NCBI GenBank assembly: GCA_965216325.1
Contig: OZ244160.1
Coordinates: forward strand, 448,001-512,000
Source: Coraliomargarita sp.
Lineage (GTDB): Bacteria; Verrucomicrobiota; Verrucomicrobiia; Opitutales; Coraliomargaritaceae
Length of the DNA: 64,000 nucleotides
Direction of reading: 5' to 3'
The position numbers and the translations under genes are program-made. This document shows positions 11,578 through 32,200 of the stretch, piece by piece (within the stretch, counting starts at the first letter, position 1; the number at the start of each line of letters is the position of its first letter). Below the pieces are notes generated by a model. It was not told where the DNA came from and did no database searches. It saw nothing but the letters and a program-made list of their open reading frames with translations.

Positions 11578-13803
11578 ATGAAGACGTACTTAAAAACTCT
11601 CTTATCGGCAGTGTGCATCGCTGCAGCTTCGCAATGCGCGAATGCCGATCAGAATTTCACCCAGTTTACAGGGCCAGGTCTGGACTACACTACTTGGAAC
11701 GGAGCCTTGCTCATCGGTCCAGGTCACTCGCTATGGGGCATGCGAGTCGGTTATTTGAAGGGCGATAAGCTCGTGACTGGTCAGGAAATTACAAACGAAG
11801 TCGCCAGAGCCGGAGCGTACGATTCGAATCGCTCCTATGCCGATCTCGATCTAACCAACTACACGATTCGCTGGGCGAAGCATGGTCCTAATACGATGCT
11901 AGCTGAAGTGACCGCAGAAAAAGACCTTGCGCTTGTCGCCGAAGTCTATCCCGCTCACCAGAATATGGCGAACGTGGAAGTGCCTTGGCCGATTCATAAC
12001 CCCGCTCAAATGCAAGTCAGCCCTGAGGGCATCATCACCGGCACTAGCCGGCATATTGATACCGTTGCAGGCCATACCCGTATTACGGGGGGCAATGCCG
12101 AGTTTGACAATCGTTCGGTTAGCATTGCTCCGGTAGAGAAAGGGCTCGATCACTTGCGCATGGAAACATTTCCCAAGCCTGCTGAATCCTTGGATTCCGA
12201 GGCGTGCAAGGCAAGGGGCTTTAGCCATGACGGGCGTAACCGTTCCTGCGCGATCATCCATGCCAAGAAAGGTCAGAAGGTCTATCTCGCGGTATCTGTC
12301 TCGGACGGCGTGGTCGAGCCCCTGAACCTCGATGAGGCTGCGATCAAGAAGGCGATCGACGCCGCACAAGCAAACTACCTGAGCAGCAGAATGCATGGCA
12401 CTGGTAATTTGGGGCTCTGCGCAGAGCCGATGATCAATGAAATCCTGTGGACCTCCACCTACAACCCCTTTGAAAAGAAAGTGTTCATTCCCGCAGGGCG
12501 CCCATGGATGGGGGACGGCCGTTATAACCTCTGGGGCTGGGACGAGAGCTTCTGTGCGGCAGTAGTATCACTGGCGTCGGATGAGATCGCCGAGATCAAT
12601 GTGGTGCTCGCCAATGCGGACGACCGGATCGGCCCCTACGCGGGTTGGTATGTTTATAGCAAACACGGCAACCTCGACGTGTTGAAGAATAATTACCCCG
12701 TCTACAAGGGCATGTACCCGCCCGACAATGCCGAGCTGGTGAAATGTGGCAATGACTGGAATGCCGAAGTCGGACGCGGCATGGATGACACACCCATGCG
12801 TGAGCACTGGCTGAAGCTCGGCGTGATGTATTCACTGGATATGTCCTCCATGAAAGCGTGGAACCTGGAACTACTCGCCAAGATGGCCAAAGAGCTTGGA
12901 AAGGACGAAGAGGCCAAGCAATATCAGGCCAGCTACCAAGCGCTCGCTCAAAAAATCAATGACACCTTTTGGAATGAAGAGGCCGGGATTTACCGGAACC
13001 GCTATGTGTCAGGCAAGTGGCCGGTCACCGAAAGCCCGACTTCATTCTACCCATGGCTGGCGGGCGTGGTCGATGCCGAGCGCTCAGAAAGGTTGCTGGC
13101 CACCCTGATGGATGAATCCAAATTCTGGGGCGAATATGTGATCCCCTCGCTCGCCAAGGATGACCCTCAATATGGGAAAGTGGCGGAGCATAAACATGAC
13201 AACAGAATATTTCCTGCCTTCTGTTACTGGCGCGGCAATATCTGGCCACCGTCCAATTACCTGGTCTACGAAGGCCTCAAGCGGGCAGGGCACGACATGG
13301 CGGCCGCTGCCTATGCCGAGAAATCCGTCAAAATGTGGCATGACAACTGGCTGGTCACCGGCGGCTTCCCTGAGAACTATCACCCGGAAACCGGCAAGCG
13401 CTCGGAAATGGCGCACAAACATCAGACCTGGACTACCTTGTTCACCATGGTGGGAGTCAAGGAGCTGATTGATGTTGAGATCTGGTCCGATCCAAATGCG
13501 CTGCGTTTTGGCACCATGTCCAAAGGCGATAATGCGATCTACAACTACCATCACCGCGGCCACCGCTACGACTTGGAAATCAGCGCCGACGGCTTGACCG
13601 TCAAAAAAGATGGCAAGCCATTGCTGACCACCTCCTCCGATCAGTGCGTGATTCGCGACTTCATCTGCGCCGACGGCCAAGTCTCCTGCGTGGTTGAAAG
13701 CGTGAAAGCGCAGGACATCAAATTCTACGGTGCACCAAACACCAAGCCACTGAATTTCAAAGCCGCTGCCGGAACCACTCAAGTATCGCTAAGCTGGGAC
13801 TGA
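11578..13803 (+). CDS. Secreted GH63/MGH1-like (alpha/alpha)6 glycoside hydrolase
   Basis: Signal peptide; motifs WGWD, GMDDTP, YWRGNIWPPSNY, FPENY. Confidence 0.8.
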   Translation: MKTYLKTLLSAVCIAAASQCANADQNFTQFTGPGLDYTTWNGALLIGPGHSLWGMRVGYLKGDKLVTGQEITNEVARAGAYDSNRSYADLDLTNYTIRWAKHGPNTMLAEVTAEKDLALVAEVYPAHQNMANVEVPWPIHNPAQMQVSPEGIITGTSRHIDTVAGHTRITGGNAEFDNRSVSIAPVEKGLDHLRMETFPKPAESLDSEACKARGFSHDGRNRSCAIIHAKKGQKVYLAVSVSDGVVEPLNLDEAAIKKAIDAAQANYLSSRMHGTGNLGLCAEPMINEILWTSTYNPFEKKVFIPAGRPWMGDGRYNLWGWDESFCAAVVSLASDEIAEINVVLANADDRIGPYAGWYVYSKHGNLDVLKNNYPVYKGMYPPDNAELVKCGNDWNAEVGRGMDDTPMREHWLKLGVMYSLDMSSMKAWNLELLAKMAKELGKDEEAKQYQASYQALAQKINDTFWNEEAGIYRNRYVSGKWPVTESPTSFYPWLAGVVDAERSERLLATLMDESKFWGEYVIPSLAKDDPQYGKVAEHKHDNRIFPAFCYWRGNIWPPSNYLVYEGLKRAGHDMAAAAYAEKSVKMWHDNWLVTGGFPENYHPETGKRSEMAHKHQTWTTLFTMVGVKELIDVEIWSDPNALRFGTMSKGDNAIYNYHHRGHRYDLEISADGLTVKKDGKPLLTTSSDQCVIRDFICADGQVSCVVESVKAQDIKFYGAPNTKPLNFKAAAGTTQVSLSWD

Positions 13804-13810
13804 CAATCTG

Positions 13811-13863
13811 GTCAACACGGTCAATTGACCGTGTTGACGGCATTGTTTTTTTTTTGCTAGACT
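13811..13863 (+). promoter_or_regulatory. Perfect 28-bp palindrome GTCAACACGGTCAATTGACCGTGTTGAC overlapping -35 TTGACG, with T10 spacer tract and extended -10 TGcTAGACT
   Basis: Read directly; upstream of PEP-CTERM gene 13940. Confidence 0.75.
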
Positions 13864-13939
13864 GTTATCTACTGTTATCTACAGTTGCGAAGATGAATTG
13901 AATCTTCGGCCTTGTAAATCAAACCCCTGAAAACAAAAT

Positions 13940-14689
13940 ATGCCTACTAAACATCTAATTACACTCTCTCTCGCAACTATCGGCCTCGCCACGGTTTCGA
14001 ATGCGGCAAGTATCGGGTTGAATTTCGTCGACGGACGTAGCGGACTAGATCCCCAGTCGATCGGTGCAGCCGAAAGCGCCGGTGTCGTTTCGCAAGTGAA
14101 CTGGAACAATACCAACGCGGAGGGTGCTGACGTATCCGCAGGATTTACCAGAACCACGTTGGATATCGCCAGCCCGATCGCCGACACACTTGTCGATAAT
14201 ACAGGCGTCGATAGCGGAGCGACGGTATCGTGGTTTGCATCGAGCACATGGTCGCCAGTCTCCGCAGGGACAGACGGCGACGGTGCTTTGATGTCGGATT
14301 TCCTGCAACCCGCTAACGGAACAGCGTCAGTGACCTTTAGCGACCTTACTTACGATACCTACGACGTGTATCTGTATTTTGGTCGTGGACAATATGCTAA
14401 TATTAATGGCGACACAACAGCCGACATCTCGATCGGCGCGACCACCAAGACCGTTACGATGTCCGGCGAGGGCACTGGTTTTGCGGGATTCGTCGAAGAT
14501 GTAAACTACGTCCGCTTTTCCGGCGTGACCGGTTCCAGCTTTACTGCATCGTTTGATCATATCAGTGGTAGCTTCACAGCGGGCATCAAGGGCATTCAGG
14601 TCGTCGCCGTCCCCGAGCCCTCTACTGCAGCGCTCCTTGCTGGTTGCCTCGGGCTAGGCCACGTAATGATGCGTCGTCGCCGCCGATAA
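13940..14689 (+). CDS. PEP-CTERM protein
   Basis: Signal peptide; C-terminal VPEPSTAALLAGCLGLGHVMMRRRRR. Confidence 0.92.
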   Translation: MPTKHLITLSLATIGLATVSNAASIGLNFVDGRSGLDPQSIGAAESAGVVSQVNWNNTNAEGADVSAGFTRTTLDIASPIADTLVDNTGVDSGATVSWFASSTWSPVSAGTDGDGALMSDFLQPANGTASVTFSDLTYDTYDVYLYFGRGQYANINGDTTADISIGATTKTVTMSGEGTGFAGFVEDVNYVRFSGVTGSSFTASFDHISGSFTAGIKGIQVVAVPEPSTAALLAGCLGLGHVMMRRRRR

Positions 14690-14733
14690 TTTTTCATATT
14701 AAGGGATAATATATAATAGGGATATATAGGGTA

Positions 14734-14768
14734 AAGCCCCTCGCAGTTCAGCTGTGAGGGGCTTTTTT
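14734..14768 (+). terminator. Intrinsic terminator (identical copy at ~16188-16222)
   Basis: aaagcccctcgcag-ttcag-ctgtgaggggc followed by a T run. Confidence 0.8.
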
Positions 14769-14982
14769 TGTGGTATGCGATTAAGCGCAAAGCGTCTTGA
14801 GCCCGATTTATGCAATAGGATGAGCAAGTTGCGCGGCAAGTGCAGCCGAGGGAACGTATAAACCTGGTGTGAATGGCACTCGTTTAAGGCCATGTATCGT
14901 ATGGGGCAGGCGATCTCCGTGCCTTGTAAGTTCTGCACGGGTAACCGGAATCGATAAGAGGGGCGCTGAAAAGGAGGAGTTG

Positions 14983-15136
14983 AACCGTTAATGGACGTTA
15001 ATGAACGTTAATTTTTCATGTGGATGGGCTTGATTTGAATGAGTGCAATAAATCAACAGCATTGATACGTCATTCGGAATCTCTCACCAGAATGACGAGT
15101 CCTCTGATTAACGTTCATTCACGTTCATTGACGGTT
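14983..15136. repeat. Inverted repeat built from 9-bp-period units (copy at 16437-16590; related elements at 20054-20155 and 20463-20556)
   Basis: aaccgttaatggacgttaatgaacgttaat ... attaacgttcattcacgttcattgacggtt. Confidence 0.7.
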
Positions 15137-15148
15137 AAAAAAAGCAGA

Positions 15149-15212
15149 GTGTTTTTAGTGTTTTTAGGGACAGGCTATAAAAGTGTTTTTAGGGACAGGC
15201 TATAAAAAGAGC
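15149..15212 (+). repeat. Junction repeat GTGTTTTTAGGGACAGGCTATAA, copies at 15158 and 15183
   Basis: Direct repeats; the second copy is joined directly to a duplicated piece of the GH63 gene 3' end. Confidence 0.85.
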
Positions 15213-15213
15213 C

Positions 15214-15348
15214 CCGACGGCCAGGTCTCCTGCGTGGTTGAAAGCGTGAAAGCGCAGGACATCAAATTCTACGGTGCACCAAACACCAAGCCACTGAATT
15301 TTAAAGCCGCTGCCGGAACCACTCAAGTATCGCTAAGCTGGGACTGAC
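15214..15348 (+). pseudogene. Duplicated 3' fragment of the GH63-like gene (copy of 13670-13804)
   Basis: Near-identical sequence ccgacggcca...gctaagctgggactgac. Confidence 0.85.
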
Positions 15349-15358
15349 CCTCGGGGCA

Positions 15359-15408
15359 ACACGGTCAATTGACCGTGTTGACGGCATTGTTTTTTTTTTT
15401 GCTAGACT
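15359..15408 (+). promoter_or_regulatory. Palindrome ACACGGTCAATTGACCGTGT with -35 TTGACG, T11 tract and -10 TAGACT
   Basis: Copy of the 13815 promoter with one extra T. Confidence 0.75.
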
Positions 15409-15474
15409 GTTATCTACAGTTGCGAAGATGAATCGAATCTTCGGCCTTATAAATCAAACCCCTGAAAACAAAAT

Positions 15475-16143
15475 ATGCCTACTAAGCATCTAATTACACT
15501 CTCTCTCGCAACTATCGGCCTCGCTGCCGGTGAGGCTAACGCTGCGACCATCACCTGGCAAACGCCCGTGAGCGTATCCGGTGACGGGACCGCCGACATC
15601 GACAACACAGGGACACTCGAGTACGCCTATCAGTACGGGGCGTTCAGCGGTGCGCTGACCATTGACGGCGTAACCTTCGCCGATGTCAGCGATACAACTG
15701 CATCTGGAGGAACAAACTTTACGACCGCAGTTGACGCGGGGCAGCAAGGCGACATCGGCGAGGTCGCCGGCACCACAGGCGACTACCAAACACTACTCAG
15801 GCAAAACACATATGAAGCAAACAATCAAACCCCCTGGACATTGCAGGGGCTGACAAATGGCCAGGACTACCTTGTACAGTTCTGGGTCGCCGATATTCGC
15901 TACGACGATACTCAGGTTCAAACCATTGCCGGTGGCGCGAATACAACCGAGGACATCTCCATTAAGACCGGCCAATATGTGATCGGCACGTTCACTGCCG
16001 ATGCCACGACGCAGCAGGTCTCTTTCAGCGGCGACATCCTCAACGCTATGCAGCTGCGGTCGGTCCCCGAGCCCTCTACTGCAGCGCTCCTTGCTGGTTG
16101 CCTCGGGCTAGGCCACGTAATGATGCGTCGTCGCCGCCGATAA
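15475..16143 (+). CDS. PEP-CTERM protein
   Basis: Same signal-peptide start and same VPEP tail as gene 13940, different middle. Confidence 0.92.
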   Translation: MPTKHLITLSLATIGLAAGEANAATITWQTPVSVSGDGTADIDNTGTLEYAYQYGAFSGALTIDGVTFADVSDTTASGGTNFTTAVDAGQQGDIGEVAGTTGDYQTLLRQNTYEANNQTPWTLQGLTNGQDYLVQFWVADIRYDDTQVQTIAGGANTTEDISIKTGQYVIGTFTADATTQQVSFSGDILNAMQLRSVPEPSTAALLAGCLGLGHVMMRRRRR

Positions 16144-16602
16144 TTTTTCATATTAAGGGATAATATATAATAGGGATATATAGGGTAAAGCCCCTCGCAG
16201 TTCAGCTGTGAGGGGCTTTTTTTGTGGTATGCGATTAAGCGCAAAGCGTCTTGAGCCCGATTTATGCAATAGGATGAGCAAGTTGCGCGGCAAGTGCAGC
16301 CGAGGGAACGTATAAACCTGGTGTGAATGGCACTCGTTTAAGGCCATGTATCGTATGGGGCAGGCGATCTCCGTGCCTTGTAAGTTCTGCACGGGTAACC
16401 GGAATCGATAAGAGGGGCGCTGAAAAGGAGGAGTTGAACCGTTAATGGACGTTAATGAACGTTAATTTTTCATGTGGATGGGCTTGATTTGAATGAGTGC
16501 AATAAATCAACAGCATTGATACGTCATTCGGAATCTCTCACCAGAATGACGAGTCCTCTGATTAACGTTCATTCACGTTCATTGACGGTTAAAAAAAGCA
16601 GA

Positions 16603-17110
16603 GTGTTTTTAGTGTTTTTAGGGACAGGCTATAATAATACCGATAATAATACCGATTCGCAAAGGTTTGACCTGATAGGCACCACCCCGTCTCGCTTTGC
16701 GATCCACCCCTCCTCGTCAAGGAGGGGAGCTAAAGAAGCTCCTCCCCTGCGAAGGGGAGGTCATCCCGCTAGCGGGATGGGAGGGGTATTTTAGCCCAGG
16801 AGTGTTTTTAGGGACAGGAGTGTTTTTAGGGACAAAGTGTTTTTAGGGACAGGCTATAATAATACCGATAATAATACCGATTCGCAAAGGTTTGACCTGA
16901 TAGGCACCACCCCGTCTCGCTTTGCGATCCACCCCTCCTCGTCAAGGAGGGGAGCTAAAGAAGCTCCTCCCCTGCGAAGGGGAGGTCATCCCGCTAGCGG
17001 GATGGGAGGGGTATTTTAGCCCAGGAGTGTTTTTAGGGACAGGAGTGTTTTTAGGGACAGGAGTGTTTTTAGGGACAGAGTGTTTTTAGGGACAGGCTAT
17101 AAAAAGAGTC
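16603..17110 (+). repeat. Cluster of 8 junction repeats (16612, 16802, 16820, 16837, 17027, 17045, 17063, 17080) enclosing two truncated MITE copies; 225-bp tandem duplication
   Basis: Tandem agtgtttttagggacagg units; 16612-16836 is repeated at 16837-17061. Confidence 0.85.
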
Positions 17111-17296
17111 CGGCCTTTTTTGGTTCTTCGTCAATTCATCGAGCATCTTCAACATTTCACCGTGCGGATAATTGCCGACCGAGGTGTAAGCTCCATGGCC
17201 CTTTAAGGATGGCAAAGACGTCAAACGGTCCAACACTTCATATCCGAACTTAGATTCCACCATCTCAAGGAATTCTGTGAACACCAAACCTTTCAT
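17111..17296 (-). pseudogene. Truncated heme NO-binding (H-NOX/HNOB) domain gene
   Basis: MKGLVFTEFLEMVESKFG..GAYTSVGNYPHGEM is a typical H-NOX N-terminus; it breaks off after ~57 aa just before the junction repeat. Confidence 0.8.
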
Positions 17297-17674
17297 GAGG
17301 ACTGAGGCTATTGTAGTTTTTACAGGTTGAAGCGCGTCGGATGCTGTAATTTTTACACAAACACGATGGAGAACCGCTAGATAGAATTAGATAAAAAAAC
17401 CTCATATGCCTGCATATCAGCTACTTGGGTGATAATAAAACAAAATTGGCATGGCGCATGATATAAGTCTAGCATGGCCAAAACTACTCCTACCCCGATC
17501 TCTGCGATTCCGCATATTGTCCAAGCGTCGGCATCATTGATGGTGACTCCACAGCAGCCGCATTAATGCGATTCGTTCCTCCTTGTTGCTAATATATTGT
17601 AAATTGCAACGTAATTGTCAGGTCTACGACCTGAAAATACAAAACACGACACTACACCCCCAATGCCCAAAAAA

Positions 17675-18457
17675 ATGAAATCAAACTATAAAATCAACCT
17701 GACCGCCGCCACTCTGATCGCGCTAGGTTCCTTCGCATCCGTTCGTGCTGCTGTTGTCACTTGGGACGGCGATGCAGCGGACGGACAATGGGGCACCGCC
17801 ACGAACTGGGACAGTGATGCTGCACCCGCGGCTGGCGACGACGTGAACATTGCGAACGGGGATGCCGTCAATATTACCGGAAACATTCTGGCAAGTGGTC
17901 TCAACATCACCCTCAGCGGTGGCTCGAATTTATCGTATACAGGTATTAGTGGTGCTTTTCAGTTTAACTTGAATGGTGCCACGATTGCAGTCGGCTCAGG
18001 CTCTACCCTTAACGGCGGGACTACTAGAATGTGGGGCACTTCCAAACTGGTCTTCGATGACGGGGCAGATTTTAACGGCACTATGGAGTTCAGGGACTTT
18101 AGTGATGATGGCCCTGACTTACAGTTTAATCTCGGAGCAACCGGCTTCACGACCGTTGAAGCTGGTGGCTTGGGGTTCTGGTCTGGCGATAACTTATCAA
18201 TTGTGGACTTCACCGTCGACCTTACGAACTACTCCGGCGGAGCGGATACGATCACCCTGATCGACTGGAATGGTAGCGGTAGCGCGAGTCAAGCCTTGCT
18301 CGATGCTGCCACTCAAACCTTCATCGGGGGATCTGCTAATCTTTTATGGGATGATGCTAACAATGCCATCCAGCTGAGTATCGTCCCCGAGCCCGGCACC
18401 TATGCGCTGCTGGCTGGCCTGACAGGCCTCGTCTTCGTAATGATACGTCGCCGCTAG
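17675..18457 (+). CDS. PEP-CTERM protein (VTWDG..WGTATNW family)
   Basis: MKSNYKINLTAATL signal peptide matching gene 41441; tail VPEPGTYALLAGLTGLVFVMIRRR. Confidence 0.9.
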   Translation: MKSNYKINLTAATLIALGSFASVRAAVVTWDGDAADGQWGTATNWDSDAAPAAGDDVNIANGDAVNITGNILASGLNITLSGGSNLSYTGISGAFQFNLNGATIAVGSGSTLNGGTTRMWGTSKLVFDDGADFNGTMEFRDFSDDGPDLQFNLGATGFTTVEAGGLGFWSGDNLSIVDFTVDLTNYSGGADTITLIDWNGSGSASQALLDAATQTFIGGSANLLWDDANNAIQLSIVPEPGTYALLAGLTGLVFVMIRRR

Positions 18458-18544
18458 GTTCTGAGCTTATTTTCGAATGCTAGTCGATTCGAAGGGCTGC
18501 AAGGTGACGGAATGATTTTTTCATATAGGGTTACCTATTAGGGT

Positions 18545-18577
18545 AAAGGCCGCGCTTGGGGAGCGCGGCCTTTTTTT
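18545..18577 (+). terminator. Intrinsic terminator (copy at ~19889-19921)
   Basis: aaaggccgcgct-tgggg-agcgcggcc followed by a T run. Confidence 0.8.
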
Positions 18578-18704
18578 GGTTCTTCGTCAATTATCGTGAA
18601 AGGGATAGCAAGGAAGCGGGATTGAAGTTCATAGAGCTTCTTCGAGATTTTCAGTGGATGCGTGCACTGTTAGGCGTTGAAGGCCTTCTGAGGGCACAGA
18701 GCAC

Positions 18705-18975
18705 CCAAGGGGGTGGGTGGTTTAAATAACTCCTTCCCGGCAGGGAAGGTGGATCGTGACTTGTCCGCCGTAGCTCGACACGTCCGCCGTAGCTTCTGAG
18801 CGAAGGAGGAAGAGCGAAGGAGGAAGCGAGACGGCATGCGCGCCGTAGCCTTGGCGTAGGAGTGAAGGGTTCTCTGACCGAGCCTAGGCAGATTTTTGCT
18901 CCGGCTGGCTCAAATAACAGTAAAAACCCCTCCGTCCCCGCAGACGGGGCCACCTCCCCTTCGCAGGGGAGGAGC
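18705..18975. repeat. REP-like palindromic cluster (gtccgccgtagc..gcgaaggagga units and cctcccc hairpins); related inverted unit near 20690-20722
   Basis: Repeated GC-rich hairpin units in intergenic DNA. Confidence 0.5.
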
Positions 18976-19020
18976 TATTAATTGCCCAATAATCACGTAA
19001 AATGGAAGATTCAAAGATGT

Positions 19021-19051
19021 GTGTTTTTAGGGGCAGGCTATAAAAAGAGTC
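19021..19051 (+). repeat. Junction repeat copy GTGTTTTTAGGGGCAGGCTATAAAAAGAGTC
   Basis: Joined to a ~19-bp copy of the GH63 3' end (tcgctaagctgggactgac). Confidence 0.8.
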
Positions 19052-19079
19052 GCTAAGCTGGGACTGACCCCTCGGGGCG

Positions 19080-19126
19080 ACACGGTCAATTGACCGTGTT
19101 GACGGAATTCCTTTTTCTGCTACTAT
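19080..19126 (+). promoter_or_regulatory. Palindrome ACACGGTCAATTGACCGTGT with -35 TTGACG and TGcTACTAT
   Basis: Upstream of PEP-CTERM gene 19195. Confidence 0.75.
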
Positions 19127-19194
19127 GAATGAGATTTTAGATTAATAAGGTTGTTATCGCCCTAAAATACAAAACCCGATAAATATATTAAAAT

Positions 19195-19800
19195 ATGAAA
19201 AAATTACACACCCTTACAGTAATCGCAGCCTTCGGCCTCAGCGCCCTCTCGGCCCAAGCGTCCATCGTCCTGCCTGACGCTGGAAACTCAGTTACTTTTG
19301 AGGCAGAAGCCTATGATGCGGAATCGGGCACTGTAATTGTAGCCGATGCTACTAATGCATCAGGTGGCTTTTATGTCGACAGCCTTGCTGCCTCGGCGGC
19401 TGGTGGTGGTAATGGTGACTTTATCAGCTTTAACATCAGTAACCTAGACACCGCGCTGACTTATGAAATTACTTTTAATTACCGTAATAACTCCAACGTC
19501 GGAGATAAGTCTACGGAGTGGGAATTTTATGGAGTGACGGGTGGCTCCACTTACACATTGCTAACGTCGATCGTTGCTCCATCTACCGGTGCTTGGAGTG
19601 GTCCTTTTTTCGAAGCGCCCACATCTACTGGCTTCAATATCGCTGCAGGCACGACCGCCATTCAGGTGGAAAACCTTACTGCTGGTAACTTTTCTCACCT
19701 TGACTCTTTCACGATTTCGGCGATCCCCGAGCCCGGCACCTATGCGCTGCTGGCTGGCCTGACAGGCCTCGTCTTCGTAATGATACGTCGCCGCCGCTAG
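19195..19800 (+). CDS. PEP-CTERM protein with a CBM6/CBM35-like domain
   Basis: VTFEAEAY..NASGGFYV..GDFISFNI..SHLDSFTI; tail IPEPGTYALLAGLTGLVFVMIRRRR shared with gene 17675. Confidence 0.88.
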   Translation: MKKLHTLTVIAAFGLSALSAQASIVLPDAGNSVTFEAEAYDAESGTVIVADATNASGGFYVDSLAASAAGGGNGDFISFNISNLDTALTYEITFNYRNNSNVGDKSTEWEFYGVTGGSTYTLLTSIVAPSTGAWSGPFFEAPTSTGFNIAAGTTAIQVENLTAGNFSHLDSFTISAIPEPGTYALLAGLTGLVFVMIRRRR

Positions 19801-20246
19801 GTTCTGAGCTTATTTTCGAATGCTTGTCGATTCGACGGGCTGCAAGGTGACGGAATGATTTTTTTCATATAGGGTCACCTATTAGGGTAAAGGCCGCGCT
19901 TGGGGAGCGCGGCCTTTTTTTGGTTCTTCGTCAATTATCGTGAAAGGGATAGCAAGGAAGCGGGATTGAAGTTCATAGAGGTTCTTCGAGATTTTCAGTG
20001 GATGCTTGCACTGTTAGGCGTTCAAGGCACTTCAGCTTTGGTTACGTGGCTTTTAACCACCGATGACTCCGATGACCACCGATTGCTTTGCTTCAGTCGC
20101 ACTCGTCTCTGTGCGCATCGGTGTGATCGGTGGTTCGTCAATGCACTTCTGCGTCGGTGGCTTCCTTTAGGCCGCCACCCCGTAGGTCAGGGGGGGGGGG
20201 GGGTAGACAGTGGGAGTCTGGTACCCAGGTGCCCAAGCTGTTTTTA

Positions 20247-20269
20247 GTGTTTTCAGGGACAGGCTATAA
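20247..20269 (+). repeat. Junction repeat copy (another at 20596-20626)
   Basis: gtgttttcagggacaggctataa; gtgtttttagggacaggctataataagagtc. Confidence 0.8.
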
Positions 20270-20442
20270 TAATACCGATTCGCAAAGGTTTGACCTGATA
20301 GGCACCACCCCGTCTCGCTTCGCGATCCACCCCTCCTCGTCAAGGAGGGGAGCTAAAGAAGCTCCTCCCCTGCGAAGGGGAGGTCATCCCGCTAGCGGGA
20401 TGGGAGGGGTATTTTAGCCCAGACCTTTATTGAACTGGTATA
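20270..20442. mobile_element. MITE-like element, complete copy; right-truncated copies at 16647-16799 and 16872-17024
   Basis: Imperfect terminal inverted repeats ataccgattcgcaaaggtttg / cagacctttattgaactggtat around cccctcc..ggagggg hairpins. Confidence 0.6.
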
Positions 20443-20943
20443 AGAATCCAGCGGAGCTGGAGACCGCTTATTCCCGCTTATGGACGCTTATTTTTAAGAT
20501 TTAAATTCTGAGGCACGTCGTGCTGGATAAGCGTAAATTAGCGTTCATAAGCGGTTAAAAAAATCTGGGTTCATTTCTTCTGCAGGCTGTTTTTAGTGTT
20601 TTTAGGGACAGGCTATAATAAGAGTCTTCTTAATTCCGTTTTTTGTTCACAACCGCTACGCTAGCACCCAAGGGCATAATAAAGGGCCCTTCCTCCTTCG
20701 CTATGCAAGCTACGGCGGACATGCCGGGCGAGGATGGGGAGTATACATTGCTGTGGCATTCTTTTCCTAAACTCCTTCCCTTGCGCAAGCGGTTGTAAAA
20801 AATTACGTAGCCTCAGTCAAAGAAGCTTAGTGCGAAGCCCGCTAAATCAGTGGTTCTATGCACCCACTCCCCAGTAAATGACGATGAACCTAAAAAGAGC
20901 CCGGAACATCTCGAAGAACCACGTGGGACTGATACGACAAGGG

Positions 20944-20990
20944 GCACGGTCGATTGACCGTGTTTACAGTATTTTGTTTTCTGCTAATGT
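20944..20990 (+). promoter_or_regulatory. Palindrome GCACGGTCGATTGACCGTGT with -35 TTTACA and TGcTAATGT
   Basis: Upstream of PEP-CTERM gene 21065. Confidence 0.72.
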
Positions 20991-21064
20991 GAGGTGCGCT
21001 GGTATGAAGAGGCGGTCTTCGACCTGAGGATACAAAACACGACGCTCCCCCTGAAAGCTAAAAG

Positions 21065-21907
21065 ATGAGATCTAAATTAGAAATATACATGCAAGCCGCC
21101 GCCACTCTGATCGTGGCAGGAGCATTCGCATCCGTTCATGCTGTTACAGTCACTTGGGATGGCAGTGAAGGCGACCGCGAATGGGGCACCGCCGCGAACT
21201 GGGATCCTGCAGCGCCCGGGAATGGCGACGACGTGATCATTGGGAATGGGGACACCGTCAACATTACCGGAAAAATTCTGACGAGTAATCTCAACATCAT
21301 CCTCAGCGGTGGCTCAGATTTAACCTATACGGGCGCAAAGGGTGCTGCTCAGTTTGACATGGAAAGCGCCTCAATTGCTTTCGGCGCAGGCTCAGACCTA
21401 TCATTGGCTGGAACCATCAGGATCTCGAACAGTGCCAGTCTGGCGTTTGACGATGGGGCTACGCTCGGTGGGGCTGTGGATATGGAGTTCCGAGAGAGCA
21501 GTGCTGGCCTACAGTTTAATCTCGGAGCCACTGGCTTCACGACCATTACACCTGGTGGTTTGAACTTCTGGAATGACTCTGATGAATTCTGGAATTTATC
21601 AAACATAAACTTCACCGTCGACTTTGCGAATTATACCGGCGAATCGGGGACGATCACCTTGATCGACTGGGACACTGACATGAAAGACGCCAATACCACA
21701 CAAGCCCTGCTGGATGCGGCCACCCAAAATTTTATTAATGCCGCCGGCTACGAAAACATTGTTCTCACCTGGGATGAGGACGCGACTGCCATCAACCTGA
21801 GCTTCGACACCGACGACACCGTCGACATTCCCGAGCCATCCTATCTCGCTGCGCTCCTTGGACTGCTTGGGGCTTTTGCTGTGATCCTGCGCAGGCAGCG
21901 TAGCTAG
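21065..21907 (+). CDS. PEP-CTERM protein, paralog of gene 17675
   Basis: VTWDG..WGTAANW, LQFNLGATGFTT; tail IPEPSYLAALLGLLGAFAVILRRQRS. Confidence 0.9.
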   Translation: MRSKLEIYMQAAATLIVAGAFASVHAVTVTWDGSEGDREWGTAANWDPAAPGNGDDVIIGNGDTVNITGKILTSNLNIILSGGSDLTYTGAKGAAQFDMESASIAFGAGSDLSLAGTIRISNSASLAFDDGATLGGAVDMEFRESSAGLQFNLGATGFTTITPGGLNFWNDSDEFWNLSNINFTVDFANYTGESGTITLIDWDTDMKDANTTQALLDAATQNFINAAGYENIVLTWDEDATAINLSFDTDDTVDIPEPSYLAALLGLLGAFAVILRRQRS

Positions 21908-22224
21908 AACAGCTGGAAGGGCCGCCTTGCGGCTATTCCTGGCTCTACCGAATATATATTACGGCCTAGCAGCCCGTCGGACTGGAGTGTCCTTCCTGCA
22001 ATCGTCGTTTTTTACCTCTTCTCCAGAATCTGAGGGTATGACTCAGTAGAATCGCCATCTATGCCAGTGCGCTAGAGCGGGGGAGATTGGGAGGGAGGCT
22101 TTGTTCATCCTAAAAAGATGAGTCATGGAACCTATTAATGGCTTCGCCATTTTGGTGGATAAGTGTGCTCTTTGCTTTCACTGAACTACCTTAACTCATT
22201 TTTTAGGTTGAATGGGCTGCCACC

Positions 22225-26027: not shown

Positions 26028-26714
26028 ATGAATAAACTCAATCCAACATCGACAGTCCTTCTGCGCTCGGTCGCGGCGATGGCCGGCATCGTCCTGACCG
26101 CGACCTCGGCCCAAGCGGCGACTATTACATCAGTCGCATTCAACGGCGGCAACGACCAGTCCCAGATCGTCAACACAGGAGGCACCCTCGTGTCAGCCGC
26201 GAACTTTGGCGAAGCGGCGGTCACCATTAATGGGATCGCCCACGCTGCGGGGTCCCTCAATGGAGCCAATCTGACCCTTAACGAAGACTATGAGGGCGCC
26301 TACCGAAACCTTGATTCCGAAGCAGGTGCCACTGGAGCGGGGGCTACTGATGAAATGTTCACTTTGCTCAGCAGCATGGCGGGGTTTAACACCTCGCCCC
26401 TAACTCTGGACATTAGCGGCCTCACTATAGGGCAAGACTACCTTTTCCAGGCGTATTGGGAGGCTAACGCCGGAGAGACACTTTCGGTGAACTTCGAGGG
26501 CGTTACTGCAGACATCGACGATGATATAAAGGGCGTTCTGATCTCGTACACGTTCACCGCAGGCGACGACACGTTTAACGCGACATTTGAAAATGACACT
26601 TCTGGGAATTGGGTACAAGGCTACTCGCTACAAGCCATCCCCGAGCCATCCTCCGCCGCGGCTCTCTTTGGAGTTGTTGGACTTTGTGCTGTGGCCCTGC
26701 GCCGTAGGAAGTAA
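26028..26714 (+). CDS. PEP-CTERM protein
   Basis: Signal peptide; tail IPEPSSAAALFGVVGLCAVALRRRK. Confidence 0.92.
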   Translation: MNKLNPTSTVLLRSVAAMAGIVLTATSAQAATITSVAFNGGNDQSQIVNTGGTLVSAANFGEAAVTINGIAHAAGSLNGANLTLNEDYEGAYRNLDSEAGATGAGATDEMFTLLSSMAGFNTSPLTLDISGLTIGQDYLFQAYWEANAGETLSVNFEGVTADIDDDIKGVLISYTFTAGDDTFNATFENDTSGNWVQGYSLQAIPEPSSAAALFGVVGLCAVALRRRK

Positions 26715-27284: not shown

Positions 27285-27608
27285 ATGAAGCGGTCAGTGA
27301 ATTTACTCCCGCGTCAACGCCGTCAATTCACTCAACTCGGTGAACGGTTGAAGTTGGCACGTTTACGTCGCCGCCTCTCGGCTACGCTGGTGGCGGAGCG
27401 AGCTGGTATCAGTAGGGCGACGTTGCACAAGATCGAATTGGGGGATCCCCATGTGGCAATGGGGAGTTACTTTCAAGTTCTCCGAGTTTTAGGTTTGGAG
27501 GCTGATTTTGGACTGTTGGCTTTGGATGATCAAATGGGGCGTAAGCTTCAGGATTTGGATTTGGTTACAAAGAAACGGGCTCCCAGACGAAAGGCTATAA
27601 ATGGCTGA
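27285..27608 (+). CDS. XRE-family HTH antitoxin (HipB-like)
   Basis: LGERLKLARLRR..VAERAGISRATLHKIELG; overlaps the start of the HipA gene. Confidence 0.88.
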   Translation: MKRSVNLLPRQRRQFTQLGERLKLARLRRRLSATLVAERAGISRATLHKIELGDPHVAMGSYFQVLRVLGLEADFGLLALDDQMGRKLQDLDLVTKKRAPRRKAING

Positions 27609-28842
27609 GCGATCTCCGATCTATGTCTATGCGGATTGGCAGGGTCTTGCGGAGCCTGCTTTGATGGGGGTGGTGCATCGTTCCGTAGTACGCGGGGAGG
27701 AAGTGCTTGCGTTTGAGTATGAGCAAGAATGGTTGAAACAGGCAGAAGCCTTGCTGCTTGATCCCCGTCTGCAGCTGGTTCAGGGGCGTCAATACCCCGA
27801 TGCGTCCGGTGTATTGGGTCTTCTGACTGACTCTGCTCCGGATCGCTGGGGGCGGTTGTTGATTCAGCGTCGAGCGGCCTTAGAGAGAGAGCCAACGAGC
27901 TTGCATGAGTCCGACTATGTACTCGCAGTTGCGGATACTTGCCGAATGGGCGGTTTGCGCTTCAAGTTGGATTCGGATGGTGCTTTTCTCGCCGAAGATG
28001 AAGCACTTTCAGTGCCTCCAATGCATATGCTTCGAGAGTTGGAACAGGCGTCTCTTCACTTTGAAGCGGCAGATTCGGAAGACCCGCATTATGTGCAATG
28101 GCTGCAAATGTTGCTCGCTCCGGGTACTTCTCTCGGAGGCGCGCGACCTAAAGCCAGTGTGCTGGATCCCGATGGCAATCTGTGGGTGGCAAAGTTCCCT
28201 AGCCGCAACGACGAATACGATGTCGGAGCATGGGAGGGTGTGGTCACGCAGCTTGCACAGCAGGCTGGACTCAATATCGTGTCTGCCAGAGTGGAAAAAT
28301 TCTCAGGTGCCGGTCGCACTTTTCTGAGTCAGCGCTTTGATCGGCGGGGGCAAAGACGAGTGCATTTCGCTTCGGCAATGTGCCTGTTGGGCTATCAGGA
28401 TGGGGACGGCGCGAAAACCGGAGCCAGCTATCTGGATTTGGTTGATTTAATCGAGCGCTACGGTGCCGATGTGGAAACAGATCTTGCAGAATTGTGGAAG
28501 AGAATCGTGTTCAACATTTGGATACACAACACGGATGATCATTTGCGAAACCATGGTTTTCTGCTCGGGGAATCTGGCTGGAGGCTATCGCCTGCCTATG
28601 ACTTAAACCCTCATCCTTGGGCAGGGGGACTTGCTTTAAATGTGGATGATGTCAGTAATGCATGTGATCTGGATTTAGCCCGGTCGGTCGGGCGCTATTT
28701 TCGACTCTCAGATCGGCAGCAGGCGGCTTATATCAATGAAGTCCGAGAGGCGGTTGCCGGCTGGAATTCTATCGCAGAGAGCATGGGAATCAGTCGTGGA
28801 GAGATCGAGCGAATGCGTGTGGCGTTTGAAACCGGAGGCTGA
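27601..28842 (+). CDS. hipA: HipA-family toxin kinase
   Basis: DSAPDRWGR, SLGGARPKA, WVAKFP, RFDR, NTDDHLRNHGFL, LSPAYDLNP. Confidence 0.92.
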   Translation: MAERSPIYVYADWQGLAEPALMGVVHRSVVRGEEVLAFEYEQEWLKQAEALLLDPRLQLVQGRQYPDASGVLGLLTDSAPDRWGRLLIQRRAALEREPTSLHESDYVLAVADTCRMGGLRFKLDSDGAFLAEDEALSVPPMHMLRELEQASLHFEAADSEDPHYVQWLQMLLAPGTSLGGARPKASVLDPDGNLWVAKFPSRNDEYDVGAWEGVVTQLAQQAGLNIVSARVEKFSGAGRTFLSQRFDRRGQRRVHFASAMCLLGYQDGDGAKTGASYLDLVDLIERYGADVETDLAELWKRIVFNIWIHNTDDHLRNHGFLLGESGWRLSPAYDLNPHPWAGGLALNVDDVSNACDLDLARSVGRYFRLSDRQQAAYINEVREAVAGWNSIAESMGISRGEIERMRVAFETGG

Positions 28843-29139
28843 ATGCTTTGATGTTCACGGATCCAGGCATGTTTCGCACAGGCCAATCATAGCACGGCGA
28901 ATACTTGCGGTGCCCGTTATCTGAAAATTTAACGCGATGAGTAACTGTTATTGCTACGCCATCTCCGGCAAGCCTACGTCTGCGCTTTGCTGGCAGATGT
29001 GTCGTCGCTATCACTCCTCGGTACTGGGCTATGAACCCAAAAAAAAGGGGGGGCAACCATAAGTCAGGGGCCGCAACACCTGCGATCTCTCTCAAGGAGT
29101 GTTGATTTTAGTCTGTCAAAGGATGGTAGGGGCAGGCGG

Positions 29140-29187
29140 ATACGGTCGATTGACCGTGTTTTCAAGCTGCCCTTTTTCTGCTATCGT
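29140..29187 (+). promoter_or_regulatory. Palindrome ATACGGTCGATTGACCGTGT with -35 TTTTCA and TGcTATCGT
   Basis: Upstream of the giant gene starting at ATG 29264. Confidence 0.68.
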
Positions 29188-29263
29188 GCAGGATGTATCG
29201 GAGCGTCGCCGCTGCTTAAATAAACCCCCATACGGCTACCATTTACAAAAAAAAGACACCCCT

Positions 29264-32200
29264 ATGAAAAGATTTTTGCTCACACTCTTGTTCGCCCTCG
29301 CAACGCTAGGGCTCAGCCACGCGGACACCACCAAGGTACTCATTATTGGCTCGGATTACGACCTCGGCGATAAGTATGGATCCGACTCTGCTGCGTTTTC
29401 ACCCACTGCCATTGCAAGCGAACTCGATGAAATACTTACCAAAAACGGCCCCGGCAATGCCACGGTCACGGTGGAGGAACGCTATAATCATTATAATCCA
29501 ACTGGGTTTGTATATAATGGCCATACATTTGGGTCGAGATCTTACAACTTGACTGGATGGTTCCACTATCCGCTCCCAGCCGGTGCGGAAGAAGCTCGCT
29601 GGGCGAACCTGCGTGGAGAAGGCGGCACTGTCTGGGATTATGTCGTGATTATTGGCGACCCCTATACCATTGAAAAGACTCCCGGTATGTACGCCCAGGG
29701 GGTGGCAAAAGTAGCCGAAGAAGTTGCCAAGGGAGCCGATCCTGCGGAAGTCATCCTATTGATGAACTGGCCGGCATCCGCATCTTCATCCAGCGTGGCT
29801 CACTACAAGGAGGTTGTTTACCGCACCGGTCGCTCTGGCGGCTACAAGGTGGCACCTGCTGCCCTGGCATGGGAGGCAGCCGGTTCTCCAAGCGGTGGCA
29901 GTCACCCGAATGCGGACGGCGCCTATATCGCCGCAGCTTCCATCTACAGCCGTATCTACAATCAAAGCGCCTCGAATTCGGGTTACACCTATGACGACAC
30001 TTTGGCTGATACCGTGCAAACGACGGTTGCAGCCAACGTTGGTCAGCCTCAATACTCCGGTGATTTTAACTTTATCAATCCCTATCTTATGCTTGGCGAC
30101 AAGCGTCGGGATGTGCATTTCAGTGAAAATGGCACTAGTACAGAAGAGGATTTCAAGAACGCTGCCAAATCCGCAATGGACCGAATTGGGGTTACCTATA
30201 ACACAATCGATTACTGCCCAAACGGCAGTTCTTCATCGGCCACTTACAACAGCAATACCCCGGAGGACGACGGCCTGGGCTGGCCTGTCGGCAATGAGAT
30301 GCCTATTGCTTGGAATCATGGACGATCCTACCCAGACGGCAGAATCAAGCTGAATCCAGATTACTGGCAGCTGGGTCTTGGCTTTGAATATCAATGGAAT
30401 ACCACCGCCTATTCCACTGAAATCGCCAACGATCACTACATCGCCATGATGGATTATTACGATACCAACCGGGCAAATGACAGGCTCGCAGATGCCGCGA
30501 TAGGGGCACGTTGGATGCCTACCCGCATGCTCTGGGCTCAATTTCATAAAGAATATCCGGACAGTAACCCAATGCGGGATAGCAACCACCTCAACTGGGA
30601 CCAGACCCATGCGATCGGCACCTACATGTACACGCTCTACTCCGGACGTTGCCCGCTGGATCCGGAGCCCTCACCCATGACCTCGGGCTGGATGGCACAA
30701 AAGATCGGTTATGAGACAGCCTGGCGTATGGGGCGTTGCCAGACCCGTGCTCCGGGATTCAAGGTGATGCCATCTGCAGCATCGGCAAAAACGGTCACGC
30801 CAACCAGCTCGGACACCATGTCCGTTCAGTTCATCATGGCGCCGACCCATGACGTCACCGTCAACATCGCCTCGAGCGACGTTCTAAAAGGCAAAGTCAG
30901 CCCAAGCCAGCTTACCTTCACACCAGAGAACTACAATGTACCACAGACGGTCACTGTCATTGGAGAAACCGGAGTTGCCGGCTCCTTCGAATTTGATGCT
31001 CAGTTCAGCACCACATCAACCGATCCGGTTTACGATGGCCTCTCCGACACCTGGACCTACACCAACAACCGTACCCAAGGTCTAAGTCAGGTTTTAGGCA
31101 ATGATGTCGTTATAGAAACCGGCGACACGACCCCGGATCTTACGGACGGCACCGACTTCGGTTATGTGGATGCCTCGCTCACCAAGGTGTTCACCATTTT
31201 TAACCAGTCCGCTACCGATACCGTTAATCTCACAGATTCACCTCGTGTCACCCTCTCCGACGCATCCGGTAACTTCACACTGACGCAAGATGCCGCTTCC
31301 GGGGCGATTGCGCCGCTTGGATCGACCACTTTTAGCATCACCTATGATGCCACTGCCGATTTAAGCGGAGGCCTGCACACAGCTACAGTCTCTATCTCCA
31401 GCTCAGACCCACTTCTCCCAACATACACCTTTACCGTTCAGGCCCTTAGTCCCGGACAACCTACGGTGATTAATGCAGGGAGCACCCCTGGCCAGCTCAG
31501 CGCCACACTTGAGGGACAGCTGAGTGTCGGTAGCATGGCCGATGTCATTATTTACTGGGGCACTACTGATGGTGGCACCACTCCCGAAAACTGGGAGAAT
31601 GCGCAATCATTCACTGCAGTAACTGAGGGGAATAACTTTTCAGCAGAGCTGACCGGCCTGGTTGCTGGACGACAATACTACTACCGTGTTTTTGCCAGCA
31701 ATTCCAAGGGCGAAGCATGGTCCGAATCCACTGAACTGTTCATGACTGAGGCGCCTGTAGCACTGCCGAGCACCCCGGTTCGCTGGGGAGCTCCAATAAT
31801 GTATTGGAGTATTGAGGAACTTAGTCCAGCTCTCTGGCTTGACGCTTCAGACGCCTCGACGATCACCCAAAGCGGTGGTGCGGTTTCTCAGTGGGCAGAC
31901 AAGAGTGCAAATAATAATCACGCATACCAGGGCACAGCAGAACGCCAGCCCACCTTGAATGGTGATCAGATAGACTTTGATGGTGGTGATATATTGTCTG
32001 TTACGAATGACGCCTTCAAAGACCTGCAGAATCCCTGTGTCATCGTTTTAGGTAAATGGGACAGCTCATCTTCATGGGGCAATGCCTTTGCCGCCTACCA
32101 CGGAGAAAGCGGTGTCGGATGGCAGTTACGGCAGCAGTCTGGAGCTGTTGATAAGCTTACACTCACTGTGCGGGGTACTGCAGGAGCTGATGACCCTGAC

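Follow-up and report, generated by a model that had tools for sequence, protein, structure and literature searches.

The array and its repeat

The stretch of DNA analyzed here, hereafter the window, covers 64 kb of the genome of Coraliomargarita sp. (assembly GCA_965216325.1, contig OZ244160.1, positions 448,001 to 512,000 of the forward strand), in which a GH63 gene is followed by the PEP-CTERM genes P1 to P4 and the PEP-CTERM-like gene P5, interspersed with copies of a short directional repeat, M, with pieces of other genes, and with copies of a miniature inverted-repeat transposable element (MITE) (table 1). Judging from sequence comparison, M corresponds to the left terminal segment of a Y1 (HUH) gene unit of Verrucomicrobiota, left here as an orphan that has lost its gene; the unit is from the superfamily formed by IS200 and RAYT (repetitive extragenic palindrome [REP]–associated tyrosine transposase). 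An earlier note on this DNA, made from the letters alone, had described the repeat as the end or recombination site of a trans-acting enzyme that captures and stacks adjacent DNA in an integron-like way.

A search of the window for the 15-mer GTGTTTTTAGGGACA with up to two mismatches returned 13 matches, all on the forward strand and 11 of them exact (the other two with one mismatch), when shuffled sequences gave 0.07 matches on average. The copies start at 15158, 15183, 16612, 16802, 16820, 16837, 17027, 17045, 17063, 17080, 19021, 20247, and 20596. The full 23-mer is present in eight of the 13 (six exact, two with one mismatch; 0 expected), and the remaining five (16802, 16820, 17027, 17045, and 17063) are partial units of 17–18 nt that stand head to tail before a full copy. 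No further copy was found in the rest of the window with either the 15-mer or the 23-mer. Over the whole genome (3,064,510 bp in one closed contig, searched in its readable part, with 24,000 bases masked), a 17-mer search with up to two mismatches gave 16 forward and 0 reverse matches, all inside 28 kb, the three copies outside the window lying at genome positions 440,583–440,690, 7.4 kb to its left. The earlier note had listed the same 13 copies in the same orientation and none elsewhere in the window, which these searches recover exactly, and the genome-wide scatter in both orientations that it had put forward as a counter-indication is not seen, 16 of 16 copies being on the forward strand within 28 kb.

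M takes the form (A/G)(G/C)TGTTTTTA-GGGACAGG-CTATAAWAAGAGTC around the core TTAGGGACAGGCTA and reaches beyond the GGGACAGG box by ~11 nt on its 5' side and by ~14 nt on its 3' side (about −11 to +22), so that the unit measures ~33 nt, or more where its first 9–11 nt are doubled. A fold test detected no palindromic or attC-like structure in M, the spacing between copies is irregular (17 bp to 1.9 kb), and no Rfam family matched positions 13000–22000 at E values up to 0.1, all in keeping with the earlier statement that the repeat resembles neither attC sites nor clustered regularly interspaced short palindromic repeats. M likewise fails the classical MITE test, as it lacks the terminal inverted repeats and the target-site duplication that the neighboring 168-bp element at 20273–20440 both has (duplicated TAA). 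A sigma-70-type promoter inside M was considered and rejected, the only match being a weak GGGACA-18-AATAAT that runs into the MITE.

Table 1. Features of the array between the GH63 gene and P5 (window coordinates)
Feature	Position	Strand	Evidence or remarks
GH63 gene	11578-13803	+	Pfam MGH1-like_GH, Glyco_hydro_63
GH63 3' end, source of both tail copies fused to M	13667-13803	+	self-BLAST
PEP-CTERM gene P1	13940-14689	+	Pfam PEP-CTERM, 20.7 bits, at cut-off
Terminator-like hairpin after P1	14733-14765		terminator scan
Long hairpin element	14983-15137	+	followed by TTAAAAAAAGCAG, then repeat; fold -37.7 kcal/mol, z -6.2
Repeat cluster, fused to GH63 tail copy a'	15148-15213	+	9-nt partial, 25-nt unit, full unit ending ..AAAGAGCC
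GH63 3'-end copy from 13667 equivalent, non-coding	15211-15349	+	93.5% over 324 nt
PEP-CTERM gene P2	15475-16143	+	Pfam
Long hairpin, identical copy of 14983-15137	16437-16591		
Repeat copy, interrupted by MITE after CTATAATAA	16603-16634	+	
MITE copy without right end	16635-16799	+	tandem pair with 16860-17024, 99% identity
Repeat cluster	16800-16859	+	18- and 17-nt partials, then full 5' part interrupted by MITE
Repeat cluster	17026-17110	+	18-, 18-, and 17-nt partials, then full unit ending ..AAAGAGTC
Terminator-region fragment (25 nt)	17111-17135	+	of the type after P3/P4 (cf. 18565-18590)
Inverted HNOB (H-NOX) copy	17136-17570	-	upstream region and first ~55 codons; 92% identity
PEP-CTERM gene P3	17663-18457	+	Pfam
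Full repeat unit, one mismatch	19021-19051	+	right edge fused to GH63 13786 equivalent, 2-nt overlap (TC)
Detached last 16 nt of GH63 (GCTAAGCTGGGACTGA)	19052-19067	+	upstream of P4
PEP-CTERM gene P4	19195-19800	+	Pfam
Repeat copy M1, split by MITE	20237-20272	+	last 5 nt (GAATC) at 20444-20448
Intact MITE, 168 bp	20273-20440	+	TAA duplication on both sides (20270-20272, 20441-20443)
Second long hairpin, between M1 and M2	20463-20555	+	fold -26.3 kcal/mol, z -3.7
Repeat copy M2	20585-20626	+	GGCTGTTTTTA, then full unit ending TAAGAGTC
PEP-CTERM-like gene P5	21065-21907	+	no Pfam match; C-terminal sorting signal visible

Pfam, self-BLAST, and a terminator scan bear out what had been read into the intervals between the copies, that is PEP-CTERM genes, a MITE, an H-NOX fragment, and GH63 tails. 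Self-BLAST aligns 13667–13989 with 15211–15524 (93.5% over 324 nt) and 13786–13851 with 19050–19116 (86.6% over 67 nt), such that GH63 3'-end copies with different starts (equivalent to 13667 and 13786) are fused to the repeat, as the earlier note had seen. It had also seen that the MITE loses its right end at the repeat twice, both times after ..TTTTAGCCCAG and before a G; the element occurs at 21 further genome loci, on both strands. The H-NOX piece has its source at genome 548,409–548,864 (gene at 548,656, with the Pfam HNOB domain), 83 kb off, and is indeed a broken, inverted copy, whereas the direct contact with the repeat that had been claimed for it does not exist, the 25-nt terminator fragment standing between them.

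The modules also bear marks of later exchange. Positions 14609–15180 and 16063–16634 are identical at 572 of 572 nt, which may be counted as a sign of recent events, and another pair of flanks is homogenized to 96% over 310 nt; a 225-bp tandem duplication comprising M and the truncated MITE (16611–16852 against 16836–17078 by self-BLAST) is 99% identical. The bodies of P1 to P4 are unrelated to each other, when P1 and P2 have their first 17 and last 26 amino acids in common and P3, with a body 51% identical to that of P5, has a C-terminus and terminator of P4 type. These shared gene ends around unrelated bodies imply that homologous exchange between conserved ends also shaped the array. A terminator-like hairpin lies 3' of every Pfam-matched PEP-CTERM gene (P1 to P4), and promoter-like sites lie upstream of P1 and P4. 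As for the MITE, the sequences suggest a single insertion into M with TAA duplication, the empty site being kept in a relative and at genome 440,614, and a deletion that would run from inside the MITE (..CCCAG) to the next M, for which a CAG microhomology is available.

That relative is known from two metagenome contigs (L061 and L062), 89–93% identical to the genome, which cover the locus. In both, GH63 runs straight into a P4-type gene (protein 90.5% identical), followed by M1, the hairpin, and M2; M1 has no MITE there and displays the empty site CTATAATGAGAATCC, and a ThuA region comes soon after M2, P5 being absent at this place. P4 is thus the only one of P1 to P4 at the locus in the relative, and ~5.3 kb present here (13786–19051, with P1, P2, two truncated MITEs, the H-NOX piece, P3, and 11 repeat copies) are missing there. 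With four genes and 13 copies here versus one gene and two copies there, the array varies between close relatives, and the invariance across strains that the earlier note had named as a counter-indication is not what is found. The divergences between the internal repeats (identity 86.6–100%) bracket the divergence between the strains. In three genomes of the same genus, GH63 and GH127 were not found at E values up to 1e-50.

On a broader scale, the motif occurs in seven of 61 genomes (the window's own and 60 relatives). In a 301-genome sample of the order, genomes outside the family gave only single matches with one mismatch, at the level of a reversed-pattern control, and 15 of the 18 exact matches in a species-wide collection came from records titled Puniceicoccaceae, Coraliomargarita, Opitutales, Opitutia, or Verrucomicrobiota. 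As far as these searches reach, the motif is restricted to this family of Verrucomicrobiota. One genome of a different genus (G005) carries a ~24-nt unit, gTTTTTAGGGACAGGCTAaRAAAAa, on many contigs and both strands, with unrelated flanks (31 copies found, 26 with enough flank aligned). This unit is intergenic between housekeeping genes, in any orientation, with some copies between convergent genes or facing gene 3' ends, a dispersal that would amount to REP-like behavior of a non-palindromic sequence. The 120 open reading frames (ORFs) that neighbor motif copies, 114 of them at G005 loci, include no transposase or recombinase family. Five G005 contig ends (C10, C71, C28, C36, and C41) show the same motif pair 70 bp apart, then GCGTTTGACAAA; these contigs stop ~80 nt after the paired motif, where a multi-copy element begins, and no continuing contig was found.

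A box shared with Y1 transposase-like genes

The lead to an enzyme came from a related motif at genome positions 176,913, 177,346, and 177,476, just upstream of a gene for a 326-aa protein with a Pfam Y1_Tnp match (1e-15). The genome holds four such Y1 paralogs, all on the forward strand (at 28,193, 177,542, 588,815, and 605,941), the other three being 83–86% identical to the 177,542 protein and matching the family in a six-frame search. The protein displays the motifs NHFH at residue 60 and YIDLN at residue 173; its best NCBIfam match is REP_Tyr_transpos, with a score of 65.8 below the cut-off of 80, and its score of 32 for transpos_IS200 is below a cut-off of 55. The clusters nearest to it in the ESM Atlas comprise Y1_Tnp "transposase family proteins" of 312–364 aa, commonest in Verrucomicrobiota, and a sequence search of solved structures with it gave no match at E values up to 0.01.

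The 11-mer GGGACAGGCTA occurs nine times outside the 28-kb region, and eight of these occurrences are upstream of the four Y1 paralogs. The earlier note had suggested checking whether the motif flanks a Y1/RAYT-type gene, and it does so at all four resident paralogs. More generally, the box GGGACAGG(C/T)TA is found at most 150 nt upstream of the ATG in 11 of 14 Y1 homologs with a readable 5' end from seven genomes: four copies in this genome, two in G002, one each in G003, G020, and a metagenome-assembled genome of Opitutia (L056), and two of three in G021. The homologs without it are the third G021 copy, that of L042 (where a box lies 560 bp upstream), and a ~50% identical homolog in G005. 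In complete units, which measure ~1.05 kb, the box stands 45–70 nt upstream of the start codon. It is better conserved than the proteins, as those that bear it are only 64–80% identical to the query, and it is confined to the 5' side, with unrelated DNA downstream of the stop codon in 15 of 15 Y1 copies. In the same-genus genome G003, exactly TTTTTAGGGACAGGCTATAAAAA stands at the Y1 gene after three partial copies, a layout equal to that of window positions 17026–17110. A TTGAC −35-like hexamer comes shortly after the box at the Y1 genes; that the box might itself be part of the promoter was rejected, the spacing between box and −10 not fitting by eye. The long hairpins of the array were likewise set aside as a recognition structure of the Y1 enzyme, since they are absent beside the four Y1 genes.

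No recombinase or transposase was found at the array, in agreement with the statement of the earlier note that no enzyme is encoded there. The larger ORFs scanned at genome 434–448 kb and in window positions 1–35,293 include no recombinase or transposase family. In six-frame searches, the region gave no Y1_Tnp match, and Phage_integrase matches came no closer to the array than 147 kb, the two nearest being at genome 287,956 and 615,776. The sole trace nearby consists of 45 codons left from the 3' end of a Y1 gene (genome 443,702–443,836), 3 kb from the M cluster at 440 kb. This remnant was tried as the cognate gene of M and rejected, being 49–60% identical to all copies compared, with no special affinity.

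At the Y177 locus (genome 176,908–178,519), three starts stand head to tail, the left end being continued by 366 nt of the gene in the first, by 66 nt in the second, and by the complete gene in the third; another Y1-like ORF, of a different kind (..PDHIHLF..), starts ~0.9 kb downstream.

Fixed junctions and the routes that could produce them

At every Y1 locus in the genome, the 5' region is partly duplicated in tandem, and the duplicates have a common start and varying length. Neighboring boxes agree over exactly 11 nt leftward of GGGACAGG at Y28, Y177, Y605, G002, and the 440-kb cluster, five loci with five different 11-mers and with units of 28, 66, 104, 130, 433, and 1052 bp, and the microhomology at these junctions is at most 1–2 nt. 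In the window, where M begins at this position too, 11 nt before the box, the shared left identity is 10–11 nt, and in L054 it is 10–12 nt. Tandem partial copies starting exactly 11 nt 5' of GGGACAGG at five loci point to a defined DNA end, and a left endpoint that is fixed while the flanks and the other endpoint vary speaks against random duplication or slippage and for site-specific breakage or joining at that position.

On the other side, M ends just as sharply in ..GAG(T/C/G)C, beyond which at least five sequences unrelated to each other are found (the terminator fragment, TTCTTAATT.., CAGCGGAGC.., and GH63 from 13667 and from 13786). M is absent from the intact GH63 gene at 13667 and 13786, and its junctions with these two positions therefore did not come from an exchange between two M copies; they look instead like the signature of an anchored tandem duplication of "GH63 tail ... 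M". At 440 kb, the cluster stands directly behind a frameshifted, truncated 5' fragment of a sulfatase gene. The location of the repeat at breakpoints, which the earlier note had emphasized, is thus borne out by edges joined to GH63 tails, truncated MITE, and sulfatase and H-NOX fragments, and supports the view that M is a discrete directional unit with sharp edges, situated at rearrangement junctions. The sulfatase fragment (genome 440,290–440,582) has a signal peptide, a CTPSR motif, and a frameshift, ends ..QYNV at the first repeat copy, and is directly preceded by an intact gene for a 790-aa sulfatase.

On this basis, a Y1 enzyme supplied from elsewhere in the genome, where four box-bearing paralogs exist, could cut at the edges of M. 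HUH enzymes remain attached to the 5' end of the DNA that they cut; the Y1 enzyme would thus stay bound to this end and could join it to a nearby 3'-OH on single-stranded DNA at a replication fork. If a downstream 3' end were joined to the left edge of M, nested tandem copies all starting at −11 would result, and left-edge joins to varied upstream 3' ends would give the stuttered partials of 9–28 nt as well as the 225-bp tandem of M and MITE. If the right edge of M were instead joined to an upstream site on the sister strand, the intervening stretch would be duplicated with M at the seam, and such right-edge joins would yield a tandem duplication that takes in the GH63 tail, a PEP-CTERM gene, and M. 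These would be the two halves of a Y1 integration reaction, run uncoupled; the repeated flanks would afterwards have recombined homologously and, together with the insertion of one MITE and one deletion, given the array its present shape. We infer both the cutting and joining by a Y1 enzyme and its action at the fork from patterns in the sequence, and we would give a probability of roughly 0.45 to the proposal that Y1 enzymes supplied in trans cut the orphan end at its two edges and rejoin it there, which would produce the anchored duplications. As regards the trans-acting enzyme of the earlier note, an HUH/Y1 transposase fits, given that the core of M is the Y1 left-end box and that the breakpoint is recurrent, when the tyrosine recombinase offered as the other example finds no support.

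Several observations weigh against this proposal. To our knowledge, all characterized Y1 transposases (IS608, ISDra2, and TnpA_REP) recognize hairpins, and M does not fold into the hairpin that they need: three copies have no significant single-strand DNA fold (z −1.31, −1.15, and +0.06), and no exceptional hairpin flanks the four Y1 genes either (z +0.25 to −2.7). None of these four genes has the TTTTTA..CTATAA variant of M, their boxes having other flanks; with no resident Y1 gene that carries M-type flanks, M may be a fossil. A strand-specific reaction would not be expected to invert a fragment, as has happened with the H-NOX piece, and the homology between paralogs, which starts at the box, could be due to selective pressure on a promoter or operator and need not mark the border of a mobile unit. 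Both Y177 junctions follow CTCG, when the other junctions have no common word; in L043, a 130-bp duplication includes the box and its junction is not at the box; and six of the ~10 left junctions in the window have AG or AGG as their last letters, so that slippage could explain the short stutters. The difference from the relative could also be due to a loss there, by recombination between the 67-nt GH63-tail repeats that deleted the array, instead of a gain here. Lastly, public unitigs break at all copies except that at 19021, which makes the tandem copy number uncheckable and population heterogeneity not visible from these runs.

Some of these points are shared by an enzyme-independent route, which we hold to be possible but less probable than action by a Y1 enzyme, and in which M is a fossil Y1 5' flank and the array arose without a transposase through slippage, template switching at structured DNA, and homologous recombination or gene conversion. 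Structured DNA is at hand, as strong hairpins (z −6.2 and −3.7) abut M copies and a small CCAGC-GGA-GCTGG hairpin comes right after M1; many short-stutter junctions have AG or CAG(G) microhomology, and the junction of M with GH63 at 19051 has its 2-nt overlap. The homogenized flanks and the shared ends of P1 to P4 indicate active homologous exchange, and the lack of a resident Y1 gene with M-type flanks also suits this route. However, the 11-nt rule at five other loci, with five sequences, units of up to 1052 bp, and almost no microhomology, is left unexplained by it, and the four Y1 loci have no exceptional hairpins. Besides, with a stalled fork one would expect the copied units to share their end, when what they share is the start.

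The integron-like capture and stacking of the earlier note, with M as the site of a trans-acting recombinase and circular cassettes moving in and out by exchange between M copies, is in our view very unlikely. The resemblance is real, in that a short directional site stands between gene-sized modules, that these modules hold different PEP-CTERM genes with unrelated bodies, that their number differs from that in the relative, and that the G005 unit has unrelated flanks on both sides. Yet the junctions of M with the GH63 tails, which join it to sites devoid of M, are of the duplication type and not of the site-by-site type; the genes have their own promoter-like (P1 and P4) and terminator-like signals, when integron cassettes mostly lack promoters and are read from a shared one; M has neither palindromic arms nor an attC-like imperfect palindrome; and there is no IntI nearby nor any integrase within 147 kb. 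In this genome, the only one searched for such modules, no M-bounded module was found elsewhere.

About equally improbable is a purely regulatory role, in which the box would be an operator or upstream promoter element of the PEP-CTERM genes and its position at junctions incidental. It would agree with the −35-like hexamer just downstream of the box at the Y1 genes, with a conservation of the box exceeding that of the proteins downstream, and with the presence of an M copy upstream of four of the five PEP-CTERM genes (P2 to P5, not P1). The distance from M to the start codon nevertheless varies from ~145 to ~550 bp, M lacks the −35 found at the Y1 genes, some G005 copies lie between convergent genes or face 3' ends, and the sharp edges on broken genes (sulfatase fragment, truncated MITE, and H-NOX fragment) would have no explanation.

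Regarding the assembly, unitig-like contigs from four of four runs (two samples of one study) span 18919–19753 across the 19021 copy without differences, the unique segments beside every copy are 100% identical in all four, and the 440-kb cluster and MITE copies at other loci account for the extra joints seen in these runs. Seawater metagenome runs contain ~0.12 of the sampled words. Mis-assembly of the repeated copies, which the unitig breaks at every copy but one and the unverified tandem number might suggest, is therefore most improbable, considering these flanks, the contig across 19021, the recurrence of M1, hairpin, and M2 in two independent metagenome contigs, and the single closed contig of the genome.

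Known systems and minor features of the region

By analogy, M and its Y1 genes would work most like a REP/RAYT system or like IS200 elements with their palindrome-associated transposable elements (PATEs), yet they fail the defining tests of both. As in REP/RAYT systems, a short repeat peculiar to the lineage accompanies a Y1 HUH gene and is also found without it, the G005 unit is dispersed intergenically on both strands, sometimes in facing pairs, and the best NCBIfam match is REP_Tyr_transpos. A REP, however, is a 20–40-nt palindrome with a conserved GTAG or CGTC foot, according to PMC3733652 and PMC6006769, when M is no palindrome and has no such foot; the box stands only 5' of the Y1 gene, in direct orientation, instead of flanking it on both sides as inverted repeats; the gene is multi-copy (four paralogs) and scores below the REP_Tyr_transpos cut-off. 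Dispersal differs as well between the two genomes, with 16 copies on one strand of 28 kb at rearrangement junctions here and 31 copies on many contigs in G005. With IS200/IS605 elements and PATEs, the system has in common the Y1 catalytic domain with its HUH and Tyr motifs, an end at a fixed distance from the recognition element, a single orientation, and the persistence of end fragments devoid of the gene. Unlike in these elements, the protein has 326 aa rather than ~150 and stays under the transpos_IS200 cut-off, neither M nor the Y1 genes have subterminal hairpins, and the paralogs are only 83–86% identical; as to the fixed tetra- or pentanucleotide 3' of which IS200/IS605 elements insert, there is CTCG at the two Y177 junctions and no word common to the others.

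The rolling-circle HUH transposons IS91/ISCR and Helitrons encode Y2 or Rep-helicase proteins and have ori and ter ends; they take up flanking DNA and have one fixed end, a variable other end, and tandem or partial copies. The array could be likened to them for its fixed and variable ends, its partial copies, and the gene fragments beside the end; enzymes of those types were neither sought nor found here.

The closest described relatives may be the TnpAY1 proteins of subclass 2.3 (Quentin et al. 2018, PMC6006769), for which that survey gives 325 aa, a median HuH-to-Y distance of 110 aa, and the motifs NHYH/YVDLNP. The present protein, compared with this description, has 326 aa, 113 aa between HuH and Y, and NHFH/YIDLNS, and it would share with the subclass an insertion between the two core halves and some four copies per genome of moderate identity. 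In the survey, subclass 2.3 is reported mainly from Chromatiales and Alteromonadales and no REP-like sequence is reported for subclasses 2.1 and 2.3; here, the nearest clusters are mostly from Verrucomicrobiota and a conserved flanking box is present. No paper on this box or on such an array was found in the open-access literature, where PMC6006769 and PMC3597680 are the relevant reports.

Y1/HUH proteins with long C-terminal extensions are common, and a non-palindromic box with a putative cut point at a fixed distance of 11 nt is of interest as a concrete candidate DNA substrate that fits on short oligonucleotides. One might go further and consider, although we find this doubtful, that the GGGACAGG box and the cut point 11 nt upstream of it are the missing non-hairpin cis DNA partner of a large Y1/HUH subclass, with orphan ends serving as landing and launch sites for a one-ended, fork-coupled transfer that copies and reshuffles nearby genes, in this case those of the PEP-CTERM array. 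If so, this would be a transposase-driven device for gene amplification distinct from integrons, REPINs, and composite transposition mediated by insertion sequences. Were the link to the enzyme true, it would explain how arrays of PEP-CTERM surface proteins expand and vary among close marine relatives in the Verrucomicrobiota and would connect transposase activity with local gene amplification in a new way; if it fails, the locus would still be a well-resolved case of repeat-anchored duplication and of mosaic gene flanks.

Other features of the region deserve a brief mention. The arms of the long hairpins consist of three ~10-bp sub-repeats, with CGTTAAT in two copies and CGCTTAT in the third, and all six sub-repeats are altered in concert so that pairing is preserved; each long hairpin is followed by TTAAAAAAA..GCAG and then by the repeat. 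A lone left arm of the hairpin lies at genome 2,017,845–2,017,913, beside a (TCCTCTG)n run. Between P4 and M1, a run of ~14 G at 20188–20203, prone to slippage, corresponds in the relative to six G and an extra GGGGAGTGGGGAGTGAGAA stretch. A near-perfect 18-bp palindrome, CACGGTC(A/G)ATTG(A/G)CCGTG, recurs at 13811–13838, 15365–15385, 19085–19105, and 20942–20965 and at genome ~440,790–440,810, upstream of P1, P2, P4, P5, and a GFO/IDH/MocA oxidoreductase gene; it overlaps a TTGACG −35-like hexamer, reads as the terminator of the preceding gene, and may be an operator.

Farther out, a sixth PEP-CTERM gene (26028–26714) is followed by a gene for a HipA-like toxin kinase (27601–28842; Pfam HipA_C, 1.7e-47). 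At the scale of the chromosome, the cumulative GC skew climbs over the first 1.05 Mb, declines until 1.8 Mb, and then climbs to the end, with dnaA at 866 kb, off the skew minimum; either the replichores are very unequal or the skew is not driven by replication. The region as a whole is flanked by genes for two giant proteins of 1880 and 2064 aa (193–5835 and 29099–35293) with InlB B-repeat/Flg_new domains, whose internal repeats are 63–90% identical to each other.

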